In this document: positions 12,842 to 34,519 of the stretch, piece by piece
How positions within the stretch are numbered: position 1 is the stretch's first letter
How the letters are laid out: every line of letters begins with the position of its first letter
Origin: Chamaesiphon sp.
GTDB lineage: Bacteria; Cyanobacteriota; Cyanobacteriia; Cyanobacteriales; Chamaesiphonaceae
Reading direction: 5' to 3'
DNA length: 64,000 nucleotides
NCBI GenBank assembly: GCA_965246715.1
Contig: CBDFFH010000015.1
Location: 64,001 to 128,000 of the forward strand
Notes under the pieces: model-generated
Databases searched by the model: none
What the model was told of the DNA's origin: nothing
The model's input: the letters and a program-made list of their open reading frames with translations, nothing else
Position numbers and translations under genes: made by a program

Positions 12842-12997
12842 GCGGATGCTCCGCAAGAGAGCGTCGACGCTCTCTTGCCTACTTCCAACCTGAGTTCGAT
12901 GAGGCGTAGCCAACGACAGAAAGACTCTTGGCAAGTTTTAAGGAAGTTACGATAGTTCTGATTGCTGTTGGAGCTGAAGTATATACAGAATTAACTA

Positions 12998-13341
12998 ACG
13001 TGAGTTCGGGTTAAGGATATTTGCTTCGTTCAAGCACCGCACTCGATTGTGTCTTGTCGCGCTAAACCCTCGGCAAAGCCGAGGAGCGCGCGCCGCAAAT
13101 CGGTGCTAATAGTGCAAAGTCCGGTTGTTGCCGCGAGCGGCAAAAGCCTGCCTTCGCGGACTAATTATCTAGTCCGCGAAGCGAAAAGTGCGGTCTTGGG
13201 GTTTCCCCAAGTAGAGCACCTTTTCAAGACAGCGACGCGCGCTCCTCGGGTTCCCCGAGGGTTTAGCGCGTCAAGACAGGCGGACTTTGCATCATGAGCC
13301 GAGACTTCAGTCTCCAGGCTATTCTTATGCCGAACTGACGT
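12998..13341 (+). mobile_element. 344-bp MITE with IS982-type terminal inverted repeats, carrying nested hairpin inserts
   Basis: Ends ACGTGAGTTCGGGTTAAG...CTTATGCCGAACTGACGT; 6-bp direct repeat TAACTA on both sides; near-identical inverted copy at 30302-30645. Confidence 0.88.
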
Positions 13342-13376
13342 TAACTATTCTTAATCCTATTCAACAAAAGATTTTA

Positions 13377-14812
13377 GGCTCTTCACTAGTTAGTATGCCA
13401 AATTAATGATTGAAGTGCCAATTAAGCAAGCATCTATTTCGGAAATTCTCAAAATTAGTAAATCCATATGCTGAACGTTTGATTAGTTTTAGCTTGTTAT
13501 TAATTCCCTCCACTACTCCACTAGTTGTTCCATTGTCAAAATAAGCCAGTATTTCATCAAACCATCGATAAATTGTCCCTTGACTTTTGACAAAATATTT
13601 TTGAGCTTTTGACAGCCATTCCCCTAAGCCTAGTAATCCCTCATTCCAGCTTTCCTTTTTCTCAAATATTTCTCGAAAATCCTCTTTCAATTGATGCATT
13701 TTTCCGAGCTGACTTGATACATTTTTTACCTGAGCTAGCTTGTCTTTCTGTTCTTCATTTAAGTCTTCTTCGTTTTTCAATATTGGATACTTACTATTAG
13801 TTATTCCTGCTAATATAGCCGCTTTCTCCGCTTTTTCTTCTGGGGTTTTTGCTTGCTTTATTTCTGCTTCGATTTTTCGCTTCTCCTTCTTTCTTTCTCC
13901 ATCTAATTCTTGATTTATTTGTACCATTATATGGAATCGATCTGCTACTATCTGAGCTTTTGGCATCATTTCTATTGCTAGACTTTTATATCCCTGCCAT
14001 AAGTCTATGCTTACTTCTTCGATTCCTTCTAATACCTCTGACCCCCACTCTCTCAGGACTTTCTTAATTTCTTCTTTGGTTCTTCCCTCGATAATTGCCA
14101 ATAATTTAGAACGATCTATGTCTATTAATACTGCACAATATTTTCCCTGCCCTTTAATCAATGCTATTTCGTCTATCCCTAATCTTTTTAATCCTATTGG
14201 TTTTATTTTTGATAAATCTCCTGATGCATCCTTTAGCATTCTTTCTATTTCTTTCTCTGTTACCTTCCCCTTCTTCGCTACACTCCTAATGTCATCTGCT
14301 AATACTTCTTCTATTATCCGATCTGCTAATCTTTTCGTGTATCTTCTTCTTGACTTGACAAATTCTAATTCTTCGCTAAATGGTTTCTGGCATTTTTCGC
14401 AGTTGAATTGTCTTCTATTTATTTCTAAAAATACCGCTTGCCCTCCCCAATCCAAATCTTTGATTATTTGCCGATGGTTTTGGTGTAACTTGTCGCTTTT
14501 CAAACCACAGCGTTGGCAAACACTTATTTTTTCGCTCGACTCAACTCCTAAAATTATTCCAATTCCTTCATGTTGGTGCTTGGCATTTACTTTTACTCCC
14601 GCTAGATTTAGTACTTCTGTTAGTAGTTGTATTTCCTTTTTGGTGAGCATTTTCTTCTGGTTTGTCTCAAGATCGCTTTCAATTAGATTATACTTAATAA
14701 CAAAATGCCCCCAATGTCAATTATCACTCCACTTTTATGGCAATTTCACATATTGATTAATTTCTATTTGCCACATTTGCTATCGATCGAGCATACTAAG
14801 TAGTGAAGAGCC
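13377..14812 (-). mobile_element. ISL3-family insertion sequence
   Basis: TIRs GGCTCTTCACTAGTTAGTATGC / GGCTCTTCACTACTTAGTATGC (21/22); 8-bp target duplication AGATTTTA at 13369-13376 and 14813-14820. Confidence 0.95.
13403..14650 (-). CDS. ISL3-family transposase
   Basis: CxxC zinc finger, LGIDEIA, SIDLW, ADRFH, TSGVVEGINNKLKLIKRSAYGF. Confidence 0.95.
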   Translation of the reverse strand: MLTKKEIQLLTEVLNLAGVKVNAKHQHEGIGIILGVESSEKISVCQRCGLKSDKLHQNHRQIIKDLDWGGQAVFLEINRRQFNCEKCQKPFSEELEFVKSRRRYTKRLADRIIEEVLADDIRSVAKKGKVTEKEIERMLKDASGDLSKIKPIGLKRLGIDEIALIKGQGKYCAVLIDIDRSKLLAIIEGRTKEEIKKVLREWGSEVLEGIEEVSIDLWQGYKSLAIEMMPKAQIVADRFHIMVQINQELDGERKKEKRKIEAEIKQAKTPEEKAEKAAILAGITNSKYPILKNEEDLNEEQKDKLAQVKNVSSQLGKMHQLKEDFREIFEKKESWNEGLLGLGEWLSKAQKYFVKSQGTIYRWFDEILAYFDNGTTSGVVEGINNKLKLIKRSAYGFTNFENFRNRCLLNWHFNH

Positions 14813-15039
14813 AGATTTTACAGCTATTGAACTTTCCCAGCGACATTTACACCCGTTTTTCATTGCAATTTGACTACCCGCTCTAAAAATGAGCGAACCG
14901 TCAGTTATTTTGACAATAGAACAACTAGTGGAACAGTAGAAGTAATTAATAACAAACTCAAGCTAATTAAACGTTCGGCATATGGATTTACTAATTTTAA
15001 CAATTTCCGAAATAGATGCCTGCCGAATTGGCACTTCAA

Positions 15040-16566
15040 TCATTGATTTGACATACTAACTAGTGAAAAGCTACATTGCTTTAATCTGGCTAATAACACC
15101 ACAACTTCATCGATGACTTTAACCATGCTGGCTGTCGGTCGATCGTGTTGATTTAAAATAATGCTAAATACTAACGGTGGATATTTAGGTGAATTGACAT
15201 AACCAGATAGACTTACAACCCCACTCATACTTCCAGTTTTGGCTCTAACTATACCTTGAGCGATCGTGCCTTTGAGCCGATTTTTTAGACTACCGCTAAT
15301 ACCCGCAACGGGTAAAGAGTCGCGATAAACTTGCCCTTCTGGTAGTGTCGCCATCGCTGATAATACGCGCACAAAAGCTGTCGGCGCGACTAAATTATGT
15401 CTCGACAAACCCGAGCCATCTCTGAGTAAATACGCGTCGGGATTGACTCCCAGTTCGGTCAGGCGTTGTTTGACTAGGGCGATGCCCAAAGTACTCGTAT
15501 CTTCAGGACTAGTAAAATGTTGGGGATAAGTTCGGCCGATCGATCTCAGTAAAACTTCAGCATAGACATTATTACTTTGCTGATTTGTTTCCTTAATTAA
15601 TTCGCTAATTGGCGGGGAATCGATCGCGGCAATTTCCGGCAGAGATAAAATACTTTGTTCGGCTACCGTTCGCATCATTGCGACACCGATCCCCGCTGAG
15701 TTTAAATTTTGCCGAAATTCGCTCATAAAAGCTGCGGTAGGATCGATAACGGGGAGATCGAGTTGGATCGGCTGAGCGGTTGTGGCTAATTTACCTGTCA
15801 ATTTTAGTGCTGGTTTGCCAAATACCGCGATCGCATTGACGGAATTTTCTAAAGTTGATTCTACGGCGATCGTTTGATTATCGATTATCCAGTTGTATGC
15901 GCCGGGATTTTTCCAAGTATATTGCAATGGCATCCCGAGTCGTTGGGGACTGACAGTTAGAGTAGTAGCATTTTGACCGAGCATCAAACTATTAATTGCG
16001 GGTGCATAATCTGTCGATAAGTCGTCCCATTCCCAATCGCCATTAATTTGCTCGCCCCGAAAGTAACGATCGTCGAAACTAATCCGATCGATCTGACGTT
16101 CTCCACGCTGTTTTAATTGTTGTGCGAGCGATTGTAACCCCATCTTCGTCAAACTCGGATCGCCCCGACCAACTACTAATAAATTTGAAGTATTACCAGT
16201 ATTCGGGAGTCGATACACCGATGTCCGCAAGCGCGTCGCCGCTCCCAGATGGCGCAAGGCGACGGCAGTAGTAATTAACTTGACATTCGAAGCAGGAATG
16301 AATAAGCGATCGCCATCCCGATTATAAAGCTGTGTCGTCGCACCCAATGCCTGCACGACAATTCCCCACCGATACCGTCGCAATTGAGGTCGATCGATAA
16401 TCTCATTAATCGCTGTCGGGAGTTGACTGGGACAAATAGCTGGCAAAGTCGGACTATTCGGCACTGAGCTGGGCGACTGTGCGCGGACGGAAATTGCCAT
16501 CGACTGAATCGCTAACCAGCCACAGAGCGCAATGGCGCGATGGTAGTTAATTAATTTATGCTTCAT
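15040..16566 (-). CDS. dacB: D-alanyl-D-alanine carboxypeptidase/endopeptidase (PBP4, peptidase S13)
   Basis: FIPASNVKL (SxxK), SNN, DGSGLSR.N, AKTGS; signal peptide. Confidence 0.93.
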   Translation of the reverse strand: MKHKLINYHRAIALCGWLAIQSMAISVRAQSPSSVPNSPTLPAICPSQLPTAINEIIDRPQLRRYRWGIVVQALGATTQLYNRDGDRLFIPASNVKLITTAVALRHLGAATRLRTSVYRLPNTGNTSNLLVVGRGDPSLTKMGLQSLAQQLKQRGERQIDRISFDDRYFRGEQINGDWEWDDLSTDYAPAINSLMLGQNATTLTVSPQRLGMPLQYTWKNPGAYNWIIDNQTIAVESTLENSVNAIAVFGKPALKLTGKLATTAQPIQLDLPVIDPTAAFMSEFRQNLNSAGIGVAMMRTVAEQSILSLPEIAAIDSPPISELIKETNQQSNNVYAEVLLRSIGRTYPQHFTSPEDTSTLGIALVKQRLTELGVNPDAYLLRDGSGLSRHNLVAPTAFVRVLSAMATLPEGQVYRDSLPVAGISGSLKNRLKGTIAQGIVRAKTGSMSGVVSLSGYVNSPKYPPLVFSIILNQHDRPTASMVKVIDEVVVLLARLKQCSFSLVSMSNQ

Positions 16567-18326: not shown

Positions 18327-18580
18327 GTTCGGGATAAGGAAAATCGATTTGCTCCGTTCGAGCACCGCCCTGAACTATAAGTTCGGGCTAATAGCAAAAG
18401 TTCGTTGAAACGAACTAGACAATTTGGTAGTTCTCTTCAGAGAACTTTTGCTATCAGCCCCTGCTTGGTGCGCTAAACCCTCGGGAAACCCGAGGAGCGC
18501 GCATCCGCAAATTCATTTGAGGGCGGTGTAGCAACGAAGCTAGGAGTCATCGATCGTTAATCCTTAACCCGAAATCACCT
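18321..18580 (+). mobile_element. ~260-bp MITE with IS982-type ends (second subfamily)
   Basis: ACCTGAGTTCGGGATAAGGA...TCCTTAACCCGAAATCACCT; homologous to 28216-28466; no clear target duplication. Confidence 0.75.
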
Positions 18581-26571: not shown

Positions 26572-26662
26572 GCTATAGTTACAAAGTTCGCCTTTGCGGA
26601 CTGAAGTATTAGTCCGCGAAGGCGGACTTTGCATCATTAGCAGCGGTTTCTAACTGCTGCTA
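26572..26662. repeat. REP-like inverted doublet (CAAAGTTCGCCTTTGCGGACT...AGTCCGCGAAGGCGGACTTTG), uninterrupted form
   Basis: Same doublet forms the core of the 344-bp MITEs, where it is split by inserts. Confidence 0.75.
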
Positions 26663-28215: not shown

Positions 28216-28466
28216 ACGTCAGTTTGGGGTAAGAACAATTGATTTGCTCCGTTCCAGCACCGCCCTGAACTATAAGTTCGGGCTAATAGCTCAAGTTCTC
28301 TTCAGAGAACTGCCAAATCTATTAGTTCGTTAAAACGAACTTTTGCCATTAGCCCCTGCTTGGTGCGCTAAACCCTCGGGGAACCCGAGGAGCGCGCATC
28401 CGCAAATTCATTTGAGGGCGGTGTGCAACCGAAGCTAGGAGTCATTGAGCGGAAATACTTACCCCG
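28216..28466 (+). mobile_element. MITE with IS982-type left end, degenerate right end (copy of 18321-18580 subfamily)
   Basis: ACGTCAGTTTGGGGTAAG start; internal sequence colinear with the 18.3-kb copy. Confidence 0.7.
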
Positions 28467-28567
28467 CTCGATCGGCTATAGGCTGAGCGAGTGGCACTTT
28501 GGAGTAATGAGCGAGCCGTAGCATAGATGATTTATTGTAAAATAGAAAAAATACCTCCTGTGAAAAA

Positions 28568-28771
28568 ATGTTTACAGCAGTTGAAGAGATTGAATCGGCA
28601 ATTCTCAAACTCTCACCACAAGAGTTAGGCAAACTTGCAGAATGGGTTTTAGATTTAGACGAACAGAATTGGGATAAACAAATCGAACGAGATGCTGCCA
28701 CCGGAAAACTAGATTTCCTTGCCAAAGAAGCATTGGCAGAACTGGAAAGCGGCGAGAGCCGGATGCTCTAA
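28568..28771 (+). CDS. Putative type II antitoxin
   Basis: 67-aa acidic protein (VEEIESAI.KLS.QEL..L.EW...WDKQIERD...GKLD.LA.EAL); TAATG overlap with toxin. Confidence 0.75.
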   Translation: MFTAVEEIESAILKLSPQELGKLAEWVLDLDEQNWDKQIERDAATGKLDFLAKEALAELESGESRML

Positions 28772-29022
28772 TGCATTATACAACTAAGAGATTCTGGAAA
28801 TGCTATGACACTTTGCCAGCCGCCGTTCGGCAAGTAGCCGACCAAAACTATGAATTACTAAAAACTGACCCATCTCATCCTTCCCTGCACTTCAAGAAGG
28901 TTGGAGAATTTTGGTCGGTTCGGGCGGGGAGAGGCTATCGAGCTTTGGGTGTAGAAACAGCAAAAGGCATTTCGTGGGTTTGGATCGGTACACACGCAGA
29001 ATATGACAAATTAATTGGCTAA
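28771..29022 (+). CDS. Putative RelE/ParE-superfamily type II toxin
   Basis: 83-aa basic protein, F.KCY..LP..V...A...Y.LL..DP.HPSLHFKKV...WSVR....YRALG...WVWIG.HAEYD. Confidence 0.8.
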   Translation: MHYTTKRFWKCYDTLPAAVRQVADQNYELLKTDPSHPSLHFKKVGEFWSVRAGRGYRALGVETAKGISWVWIGTHAEYDKLIG

Positions 29023-29186
29023 AACCTTTGTTGACTCGGCAGGTAATAGCGATCGTGTATTTAGGGCGAGAGTTCACTTAAATACTCCCAATCCTCATGT
29101 TGCGATATAGACTATTCCCAGTTAAGATGCCGACGGTGTGATTTAGGCTATAGACTAAATCCATAGTCGAAAATATATAAATACTG

Positions 29187-30236: not shown

Positions 30237-30301
30237 GGATTAGGGGTTAGGCTTTAGCATTTGCAGCTAGCTTGCTAACTATCTCGATCGTAATTAATTT
30301 A

Positions 30302-30645
30302 ACGTCAGTTCGGGATAAGAATAGCTTGGAGACTGAAGTCTCGGCTCATGATGCAAAGCCCGCCTGTCTTGACGCGCTAAACCCTCGGGGAACCCGAGGA
30401 GCGCGCGTCGCTGTCTTGAAAAGGTGCTCTACTTGGGGAAGCCCCAAGACCGCACTTTTCGCTTCGCGGACTAGATAATTAGTCCGCGAAGGCAGGCTTT
30501 TGCCGCTCGCGGCAACAACCGGACTTTGCACTATTAGCAACGATTTGCGGCGCGCGCTCCTCGGCTTTGCCGAGGGTTTAGTGCGACAAGACACAATCGA
30601 GTGCGGTGCTTGAACGAAGCAAATATCCTTAACCCGAACTCACGT
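30302..30645 (-). mobile_element. 344-bp IS982-type MITE (inverted copy of 12998-13341), abutting the IS982
   Basis: ACGTCAGTTCGGGATAAG...CTTAACCCGAACTCACGT; only a few substitutions versus the 13-kb copy. Confidence 0.88.
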
Positions 30646-30647
30646 TA

Positions 30648-31615
30648 ACGTGAGTTCGGGTTAAGCCGAAGGCGGTAACACCCACTCAAATCCAAGAGAG
30701 GGCTTCTTCGGCTGATGGCAATAGGCAATTAAACCACACAAAACATTCACACAAAAGTTGACGGGGCTACGATGACGAGAATGTTCGACTTGGGAAATAT
30801 TTTTGAGCTGGTCAATAATCGTTTCAATAATTGAACGTTTTCTGCTCAAAAATTTGTCATTTAAACGCATTAATTTGTTCTTCATATTTCGCTTCGGTTT
30901 AGCGAAAAATTCTATTCCCTCATCTTCAAATAACTGTGTTGCTAATGATTGAGACACATAGCCCTTGTCAGCAAAAATCTTACCAAACAGAGATGAAACT
31001 AAGTTTAGGACTGGCTTGCGATCGTCAATATTACCAGGGGTCAGCATGATATTTAGAAGTTCACCGTTTTCATTAGCTACTAGATGTAACTTAAAGCCAA
31101 AGAACCAATCCACAGAGGTTTTGCCGCGAGCCGCCAGATTTTTAAAAACTTTATGTCCAGATATCCGTCGATTATGGCAGACTTTTAAACAAGTGGAATC
31201 AATAAAACTAATCCCTGTGCAAGCACCAAAGCACTGCTTGAGATAAACACATAAGGGCATCAGTGTCTGAGGTATCCATTCTACAAACCGTTGATAGCTG
31301 GGCAATAGGGGAAAAGCATCTGCCCAATAAACACTTACATGGTCGATGTAATAATGCTTGAAATTTCGGTAATGGTGCTGATGAAATGTTATCAAAATCG
31401 TCATGATTTCACTCAAACAGAGGCTTTTGGCTCGGCGACGGGTTTTGCTCCCATCGGAAATGAGCTGTAAGTGCCAGCTCGGTTCAAACTTTTGGCAGAA
31501 ATTGTCGATATCACAGAATAATGCATCTAAACTATTCATAGGAGGGTGTGCTAAATCGTTGATAGTAATACCTTTTAGCTTAACGCCCCCTCCTTTTCTT
31601 AACCCGAACTGACGT
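30648..31615 (-). mobile_element. IS982-family insertion sequence
   Basis: TIRs ACGTGAGTTCGGGTTAAG / CTTAACCCGAACTGACGT; ~970 bp; single transposase ORF. Confidence 0.93.
30661..31539 (-). CDS. IS982-family transposase
   Basis: LSEIMTILI.FH..HYRNFK, PSYQRF, FIDST.L.VC, WFFGFKLHL, ADKGY, RSIIETI.DQLK. Confidence 0.95.
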   Translation of the reverse strand: MNSLDALFCDIDNFCQKFEPSWHLQLISDGSKTRRRAKSLCLSEIMTILITFHQHHYRNFKHYYIDHVSVYWADAFPLLPSYQRFVEWIPQTLMPLCVYLKQCFGACTGISFIDSTCLKVCHNRRISGHKVFKNLAARGKTSVDWFFGFKLHLVANENGELLNIMLTPGNIDDRKPVLNLVSSLFGKIFADKGYVSQSLATQLFEDEGIEFFAKPKRNMKNKLMRLNDKFLSRKRSIIETIIDQLKNISQVEHSRHRSPVNFCVNVLCGLIAYCHQPKKPSLGFEWVLPPSA

Positions 31616-34181: not shown

Positions 34182-34519
34182 ACCCACCCCACCCTATCGG
34201 GCACCCCTCCGAGGAGGGGAATTTTCTCGTTAAATGTAGGTGAATTATTGTAGGGGTGCCCCTTGCTGGCACTGTTCGCGTATCGTGGCCTTTGGCGATA
34301 CGAAGTCGTAGCGCAGCGTCTCCGAAATATGGAGAAGTGTGGGTACCCTGCTTGACTAAGGAATGAGAACTAAATAACTTGCAATTCCTCCTTTGGTAAG
34401 GGCAATTCATGAAGCGGCTCCCGCCCGTCGGGTTTCCCGACGCGAAAAGCGGATGGAATCGCGCTGAGGTTTCCTCAGCGTGCGTTCCACCAAGCAGGGA
34501 GACAAGACATTGCCCATAC
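34182..34519. repeat. Cluster of REP-like repeats with nested small hairpin inserts
   Basis: CCCCTCC-type repeat; GTAGGGGTGCCC repeat interrupted by short units; GTAAGGGCAATTCATGA|96 nt|ATTGCCCATAC. Confidence 0.75.

Follow-up and report, generated by a model that had tools for sequence, protein, structure and literature searches.

Hairpin units in the window and their structure

We analysed a 64,000-nt stretch of a Chamaesiphon genome (assembly GCA_965246715.1, contig CBDFFH010000015.1, positions 64,001 to 128,000; hereafter the window, with positions counted from its first letter) and found that it carries ten copies of a short hairpin unit that inserts precisely, and without duplicating its target, into repeats, genes and its own copies, and that is independently mobile. 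The unit reads 5'-TGTCTTG or TGCTTGG ... CGC-3', measures 47-52 nt overall and 47-51 nt in the genome holding the window (G000, Chamaesiphon by genus; 6.1 Mb, 46% GC, 2,789 HIP1 octamers), and has no coding capacity. All the units that an earlier note on this DNA had named are present and fold as it described, with an outer stem, an internal loop, an inner stem and a purine triloop. With a covariance model trained on 46 units, nine of the ten are recovered intact, together with the interrupted outer one at 34414-34509. They are listed here with the insertion point written as ^; their hosts include miniature inverted-repeat transposable elements (MITEs) and a repeat resembling the repetitive extragenic palindromic (REP) type.

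13050..13096, + strand: 47-nt unit, TGTCTTG type, at the G^A hotspot (CGATTG^AAATCG) of a host repeat
13181..13231, - strand: 51-nt unit, TGTCTTG type, in a GTCCGCC^TTCGCGGAC hairpin (C^T), the second member of a head-to-tail pair
13232..13278, - strand: 47-nt unit, TGTCTTG type, first of the head-to-tail pair
18462..18508, + strand: 47-nt unit, TGCTTGG type, at GCCCC^AAATTC (C^A) within a related, MITE-like carrier
28357..28403, + strand: 47-nt unit, TGCTTGG type, same site in a second copy of that carrier
30365..30411, + strand: 47-nt unit, passive copy of 13232-13278
30412..30462, + strand: 51-nt unit, passive copy of 13181-13231, loop AAG
30547..30593, - strand: 47-nt unit, passive copy of 13050-13096
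34414..34509, - strand: 48-nt unit, TGTCTTG type, split by the unit of the next row; host, a REP-like repeat of the GGGCAA^TTCATGAATTGC type (A^T)
34449..34496, - strand: 48-nt unit, TGCTTGG type, nested in the 5' arm of the outer unit, at C^T

Across the whole genome, a scan for the motif plus a hairpin returned 149 matches (94 distinct sequences) against 7 in a locally shuffled genome, and after 7 of the 149 had been discarded as false or truncated, 142 units were kept. A pattern search gave 105 matches and its reversed control 0, while a wider census that includes damaged copies counts 183 unit-like hairpins. Each unit begins with an unpaired 5' head (TGTCTT or TGCTT), followed by a 5-6-bp outer stem closed by an invariant G:C pair, a variable internal loop, a 7-bp inner stem ending in GG (or GC) below the purine triloop, and finally a 2-nt 3' tail. 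The closing pair, G7:C(-3), is present in 94/94, and the pair adjacent to it is a T-C mismatch in 43/94.

The stems vary yet stay paired, as the earlier note had proposed. We observe 36 outer and 31 inner stem types in 69 combinations; in an alignment of 46 sequences, 92% of the cells are paired, compared to 62.5% after shuffling, with a covariation score of 0.705 versus 0.194 for shuffled alignments (0/500 shuffles reached it) and at most 0.167 for slid controls. In 116 unique units the inner stems contain 792 Watson-Crick, 8 G-T, 6 A-C and 6 other pairs, a tally that is partly selected because the scan demanded 5-6 Watson-Crick pairs out of 7. Folding with DNA parameters gave z-scores of -3.1 to -3.9 for five window units. 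Upon examining the loops, we find 137 purine loops, 11 inverted (pyrimidine) ones and 2 mixed, and since most units fold with slightly greater stability on the reverse strand, it is loop composition and not energy that chooses the strand. The inverted loops, together with fully symmetrised arms, show that template switching acts on the unit hairpins; such switching yields paired double changes without selection, and covariation alone therefore overstates selection, whereas the fixed geometry and the loop bias do appear to imply it.

Within 12800-35000 of the window, Rfam gave no match at the gathering score, and two sub-threshold matches were not centred on a unit. The idea that a unit is a composite of two nested small dispersed repeats (SDRs) was rejected, with one short form lacking the inner part against about 105 forms of 47-51 nt. 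Other precise micro-insertions of 21-33 nt, SDR-sized, were found inside units of this host outside Nostocaceae (G000:C9:51695, C35:27566, C54:20267, C12:1675 and C2:91190; window 34300-34330).

Insertion sites, carriers and targets

The comparison of filled with empty sites defines the ends of the unit. A T precedes GTCTTG or GCTTGG in 140 of the 149 scan matches, and the earlier note had described one extra T or A added at sites whose empty form is known; this base is simply the first base of the element, because among the 34 of 105 distinct flank pairs with an exact 24-nt empty allele, 32 fit a T inside the element and 2 do not, and in 13 of the 32 the next target base is not T, which makes the boundary unambiguous. 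A second tally within G000 found empty alleles for 44 of 111 flank pairs, the insert being exactly T plus unit in 37, the T belonging to the target in 3 and neither holding in 4. With 60-nt flanks, 73 of the 142 units have an empty allele, aligned without gaps in 68 of the 73. As the leading T lies inside the element there is no target-site duplication (TSD), and the unit ends and the empty alleles likewise bear out the earlier statement that terminal inverted repeats (TIRs) and multi-base TSDs are absent.

Inside the window, removal of 13180-13277 (or equally 13181-13278) does restore, as had been claimed, the sequence tagtccgcgaaggcggacttt, a 21-mer with 76 copies in the genome that stands intact on the + strand at 26610..26630 as the empty allele of the host hairpin; alleles with the 51-nt unit but without its 47-nt partner also exist for this site. 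The site type of the nested unit at 34449-34496 is empty in other units, and a joint that skips its 48 nt appears in contigs of 2 of 4 public sequencing runs, probably from paralogous copies; paralogous repeats dominate the contigs when they are compared with the window. Tandem and nested insertion, fixed ends and a preference for repeats were borne out throughout the genome, where 11 units are directly followed by another head. Hot spots have been used repeatedly and independently: one G^A site type is occupied by seven different units with distinct 5' sequences. Units lying in frame in IS4- and IS982-like transposase open reading frames (ORFs) correspond to a 16-residue gap relative to at least five empty copies.

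Relatives, to which the earlier note had looked for empty-site alleles, do provide them. In the close relative G011, 80 units were examined, of which 38 could be mapped to G000: 14 are filled in both genomes, 13 are empty with gaps, often with the host repeat missing, and 11 are cleanly empty, although some of these 11 are copies of insertion sequences (IS) or repeats and not strict orthologues. The single-copy gene mutS2 carries a 48-nt in-frame unit in G000 at CCCC^TCC, the same stretch is empty in G011, and in a third genome (G010) a different 51-nt unit occupies the same variable loop. Units have been gained or lost recently among close relatives. G217 has three identical copies in three unrelated contexts, and in G446 most of the 30 copies inspected have unrelated flanks. 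Of the three units of G217, one is close to the 3' end of a tnpB-like gene, one inside a methylase-like ORF and one at another unique site. In cobN, mutS2 and pnkp (L491, L492, L493) we also observe in-frame loops derived from repeats; the MutS2 ATPase domain is about 68 residues longer than in the B. subtilis structure, and different repeats make up this extra length in each species.

Several window units have travelled inside larger elements, as follows.

12998..13341, no strand: carrier MITE, 344 nt, IS982-type TIRs, with a 6-bp TSD, TAACTA, at 12992-12997 and 13342-13347
30302..30645, no strand: second copy of the carrier MITE, inverted, 98% identical
30648..31615, - strand: intact IS982-family element with TIRs as in the carrier MITE (NF033520, E 1e-77)

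The counterparts that the earlier note had placed in 30302-30645 are indeed units, but they did not insert independently: 12996-13344 and 30299-30647 represent the same MITE at 98% identity, a MITE with 7 full-length copies in G000 inside which the three units spread passively. The IS982-family element likely mobilises this MITE, not the units. The carriers of the units at 18462 and 28357 are 83% identical over 254 nt, with the unit at the same site. An ISL3-family element with 167-nt inverted arms adjoins the carrier MITE (13378-15071), and at 28560-29023 two short adjacent ORFs resemble, by eye only, an antitoxin-toxin (HigB/RelE-like) pair.

The units are themselves targets. A 1,481-bp IS4-family element (TIR starting ATTCGTGACAAGTT; 15 ends found) inserts into the tip of their inner hairpin, and its 11-bp TSD reads CGGG-NNN-CCCG in 4 of 5 copies checked (copies at G000:C49:86929-88415, L496; C40:38975-40461; C37:16323-17809; C9:142609-144095). 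Units are in turn inserted in frame in the gene of this element, a layered parasitism in which the IS4 element targets 11 bp at the hairpin tip and the units target the IS4 gene.

When examining where units insert, we find a repeated flank in 109 of 142, compared to 68 of 400 random non-ORF CT sites. The earlier proposal that the targets are other hairpin repeats holds as a strong preference for repeats, but heptamer tandem repeats, IS ORFs and housekeeping ORFs are used as well; the hosts comprise GTAG REPs, other hairpin repeats, heptamer arrays, MITEs, IS genes and the units themselves, and none of the 142 units lies inside HIP1. Of 143 site types in Chamaesiphon, 90 have a C^T junction, 13 each C^A and T^T, 7 C^C and 6 G^A, with 14 of other kinds. 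The 5' side of the target resembles the tail of the unit, with C at -4, -3 and -1 in 49, 52 and 72% of 197 Chamaesiphon sites. Units of the TGCTTGG type favour 3' sides rich in A/T, 17 of 22 having T at +4. In G446 the rule is C(-3)NN^T, with C at -3 in 27/30 and T at +1 in 29/30, the junctions being T^T in 17/30 and C^T in 7/30. The target motif is fuzzy, with no fixed flanking sequence found common to the targets, and orientation relative to transcription is unbiased (51 sense versus 40 antisense). Unit position 8 is associated with target position +2 in Chamaesiphon (purine 70/88 versus 35/68, p=0.0003, the sites not being independent); no pairing rule explains this and G446 does not show it.

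Distribution and a sister family

All 24 same-genus genomes contain the pattern, with 14-232 matches each (some double-counted) and none for the control, compared to 2 of 16 other genomes, one of them by chance. Named exact-pattern matches belong to Chamaesiphon or to unclassified cyanobacteria. In an order-wide draw 42 of 201 genomes match, and as 13 have one control match, single matches are unreliable; folded units nonetheless occur in families f1, f2, f7, f12, f15 and f19, that is, in at least five cyanobacterial families besides that of Chamaesiphon. Elsewhere, high copy numbers are found in some f7 genomes and in the genus of G446 (130 matches on one complete chromosome) and G383 (53 matches), and the matches of G446 are mostly one sequence, the mark of a recent burst. 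These counts come from pattern searches, which were used in place of a phylum-wide covariance search because the latter was insensitive, scoring 40 candidates per genome and missing the four copies of G030. Related sequences, unannotated in nearly all cases, occur in plasmids of Trichormus variabilis, Nostoc and Calothrix. Eight pattern matches on viral contigs did not look like family members. Two near-complete Chamaesiphon genomes (G020, G011) lack a Bac_DnaA match at E<=1e-20, whereas all 6 of the other cyanobacteria tested gave one; dnaA may have been lost there or have diverged.

We also observe a sister family of 45 nt, ACG[GC]CA...TG[GC]CT[CT], that is built like the units, has their GG-RAA-CC tip and includes inner modules some of which are identical to theirs. 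It is present in 10 of 16 chosen genomes, with 100 matches in G197 and 46 in G320 (loci L451-L480, from G197, G320, G067, G079, G161, G030, G446, G383, G408 and G094), and absent from three Chamaesiphon genomes searched. When the 45 nt are taken out, heptamer arrays and host units become continuous again, and each family has copies nested in the other. The target motif of the sister family is on the 3' side of the insertion, its third base being C in 30/32. Since the sister family has the same core, different termini and a different rule, this suggests that the termini set the insertion rule. Inserts of 45 nt, possibly related, have reportedly been described in Nostoc trnL introns, although literature searches returned no such text. 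Our literature search, which did not extend to the original SDR survey and the papers on the Nostoc trnL-intron inserts, returned no description of the hairpin family. Side-stem insertions are mentioned, with no sequences given, in a passage of PMC4476775.

Candidate movers and known systems

Our preferred reading is that the unit travels in single-stranded, folded form, and that an HUH-type enzyme supplied in trans, similar to those of IS200/IS605 or to REP-associated tyrosine transposases (RAYTs), cuts it at either end and rejoins it; we give this reading a probability of about one half. The enzyme would read the hairpin tip and foot on one strand, nick on the 5' side of the head T and on the 3' side of the tail C, and release a closed single-stranded circle with the junction ...CGC-TGTCTTG...; the circle would reinsert at single-stranded targets loosely like that junction, C-rich on the 5' side and with T or A on the 3' side. 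Copies could multiply further as passengers in MITEs and IS, and the stems could diversify partly via template switching, one arm being copied onto the other. The cut falls between two bases of one strand and is not a shared-core exchange, because insertion at G^A gives G-T...C-A, and the 137 purine versus 11 inverted loops indicate that one strand is selected. Triloops suit DNA, and the near-pure Watson-Crick stems without G-T excess also count for an HUH enzyme. Such an enzyme is favoured because it accounts for the one-strand break, the fixed ends, the lack of a TSD, the one-strand hairpin, the C^T preference and a target that resembles the element's own end; strand-transfer hallmarks of this kind are described in PMC3479197 for TnpA-REP and IS608, with TnpA-REP cleaving C^T on either side of a hairpin and transferring strands.

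The earlier note had proposed an enzyme encoded elsewhere and had suggested looking for a gene flanked by, or co-occurring with, the units; our search brought out no such gene, and an HUH enzyme is only the most plausible guess. Several results weigh against it. Among the enzyme matches of G000 (6 Y1, 11 IS110 and 22 reverse transcriptases, RTs), no Y1 gene has a unit within 5 kb, nor do the Y1 loci of four other carriers, and units on both sides were found for three ORFs that look like housekeeping genes and for no enzyme gene. In its favour, a Y1 HUH match of some kind exists in all 20 carrier genomes tested, which proves little, these genes being too common. Circular intermediates were not observed. 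At its foot the unit has CTTG and not GTAG, and the RAYT guide rule would predict C^A over C^T; guide pairing of the unit 5' arm with target positions -3 to -9 shows nothing more than one marginal position (p=0.03, 7 tests). Replication-strand bias is usual for IS200/IS605 elements, and cyanobacterial origins are ill-defined; the dnaA-defined replichores of G446 show no bias (28+/41- versus 30+/31-, p=0.38, with 100 of the 130 matches listed, the remainder counted by strand, and the origin uncertain), and in G000 there is no link to local GC skew (66 versus 76). An apparent replichore switch in G446, seen in a shorter match list, vanished in the longer one.

Two Y1 proteins of G000 carry the Y---Q-HH signature that marks subclass 1.2, an orphan cyanobacterial group described in PMC6006769 as generally devoid of IS200-type terminal structures. 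Their genes are flanked by repeats that host units, which made them attractive candidates. Genes of the subclass occur in 21 of 27 Chamaesiphon genomes, some matches being weak, and in many unit-free genomes; they were not found at E<=1e-20 in G446 and G383, the genomes with 130 and 53 matches, which speaks against them as the mover. Composite hairpin repeats flank genes of this subclass (L001, L002, L004; L213, L221, L223, L224) in a REPtron-like manner. No multi-copy long element starting with a unit head was present among the matches listed.

Two other routes we judge unlikely. In retro-mobility, reportedly proposed for SDRs, the unit would be transcribed, processed to a precise RNA and reinserted through a group II intron-type or other RT. 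RT matches are plentiful (22 in G000, and present in 4 of 5 other carriers), the loop is strand-specific, and the commonest loops with their closing G (GAAA, GGAA, GAGA) are all GNRA-compatible; however, G-U pairs are not in excess over A-C, C-AAA-G loops (6 of 116 unique units) break GNRA, the ends show neither truncation nor added bases, orientation is unbiased relative to transcription, and one draft carrier has no RT match. G217 has 31 RT matches in a genome of 3.8 Mb. Equally improbable to us is the hijacking of a host strand-transfer enzyme acting on single strands, such as a type IA topoisomerase or an uncharacterised cyanobacterial nuclease-ligase, with no dedicated transposase. TopA prefers C(-4), of which the fuzzy C-upstream target preference is reminiscent, and this route would fit both the patchy spread over distant families and a dedicated enzyme gene that neither co-locates nor co-occurs with the units, but the fixed head, tip and length suggest a dedicated binder, and high copy numbers occur only in some lineages though such host enzymes are universal.

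We regard as largely refuted, and very improbable, movement by an IS110/IS621-type bridge recombinase through a CT core. Most junctions have CT on both sides, and the right end of IS110, with eight full-length copies in G000, holds TCAAGACAG, the complement of the unit head; against this, G^A and C^A insertions split the dinucleotide, the targets have no shared fixed flanks, the TGCTTGG head does not match, and IS110 has no match in 4 of 5 other carriers, the fifth, which has 16 copies, giving only a sub-threshold one. Two IS110 elements (L007-L014), with a donor junction ACAGTAT-CT-TGTAT that we take to be IS621-like, insert at the CT of GTAG-type REPs. We give as little credence to units that are not independently mobile but arise by local slippage or gene conversion and spread only within MITEs and REPs. 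The excess of repeated flanks, the passive MITE copies and the template switching seen in inverted loops and symmetrised arms are in its favour, but near-identical units stand in unrelated unique contexts (3/3 in G217, most of 30 in G446), a single site type holds seven different units, insertion into single-copy mutS2 is exact, and unit and flanks have no sequence relation; the unique-site insertions refute passive spread as the sole explanation.

A broader and more tentative proposal, which we hold to be doubtful, is that the units and the 45-nt family belong together in one superfamily of minimal single-stranded mobile DNAs spanning the phylum, in which the core would be the landing pad, the terminal bases would set the cut and insertion site, and the mover would be an uncharacterised strand-transfer enzyme, neither a known RAYT nor an IS605 TnpA. 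If true, this would be a scarless insertion system of about 50 nt. Moved as proposed, the unit would be among the smallest known mobile DNAs. The movement of repeats below 50 nt has been a standing question ever since the first accounts of SDRs and REPs. The hairpin family makes it testable: the ends are precise to the base, filled and empty versions of sites occur naturally, the head comes in two types, and the sister family combines the shared core with a different insertion rule; because of its recent burst, G446 should hold the mover intact.

Among the nearest known systems are SDR1-8 of the Nostocaceae, said to have been described by Elhai et al. in 2008 as tiny non-coding dispersed repeats of 21-27 nt. 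Both have compensatory structure, insert precisely, nest in heptamer repeats, minitransposons and themselves, and lack a known mover (for the SDR side partly after PMC4390886 and PMC5861425), a likeness drawn from descriptions. The units differ in being about twice as long (47-52 nt), in never lying inside HIP1 (0/142) and in being abundant outside Nostocaceae, where PMC5861425 reports that no SDR-like repeat had been found. Low-copy members of the hairpin family, as well as the sister family, do occur in Nostocaceae genomes. With REP/RAYT systems they share an unpaired conserved tetranucleotide at the 5' foot, a stem-bulge-stem and the lack of a TSD, and in Chamaesiphon, though not in G446, C^T is the favoured junction as well; those systems have a conserved GT[AG]G (or CGTC) foot tag, as given in PMC3479197, PMC6006769, PMC3116915 and PMC3733652, whereas the unit foot is CTTG, no cognate gene is flanked by units, and the units are single hairpins with sharp mobile ends that insert into REPs rather than being REPs. 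Like IS200/IS605 they have asymmetric ends, no TIR or TSD, hairpin recognition and a 5' target motif resembling the right end of the element, but they consist of one hairpin instead of separate left and right end hairpins, have no ORF and use a fuzzy target instead of a strict tetra- or pentanucleotide; no autonomous partner appeared among the matches listed, and G446, with its uncertain origin, gave no replication-strand bias. They differ from IS110/IS1111 in having no core dinucleotide shared by both junctions and from TIR-type MITEs in lacking TIRs and a TSD. Rickettsia palindromic elements insert in protein genes, as the units do with in-frame palindromic inserts in mutS2, cobN, pnkp and transposases, but the units are shorter (16-17 codons), occur in both orientations and lie mostly within expanded linker regions. 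REP insertions in genes are also mentioned in a passage of PMC6006769.

Overall, the units work like an SDR and probably like a REP/IS605-type single-stranded DNA element, yet they fail the defining tests of each, namely the length and range of SDRs, the GTAG tag and cognate gene of REPs, and the strict target and partner of IS605. They extend SDR-like mobility beyond Nostocaceae and add inserts of 16-17 residues to proteins such as MutS2.
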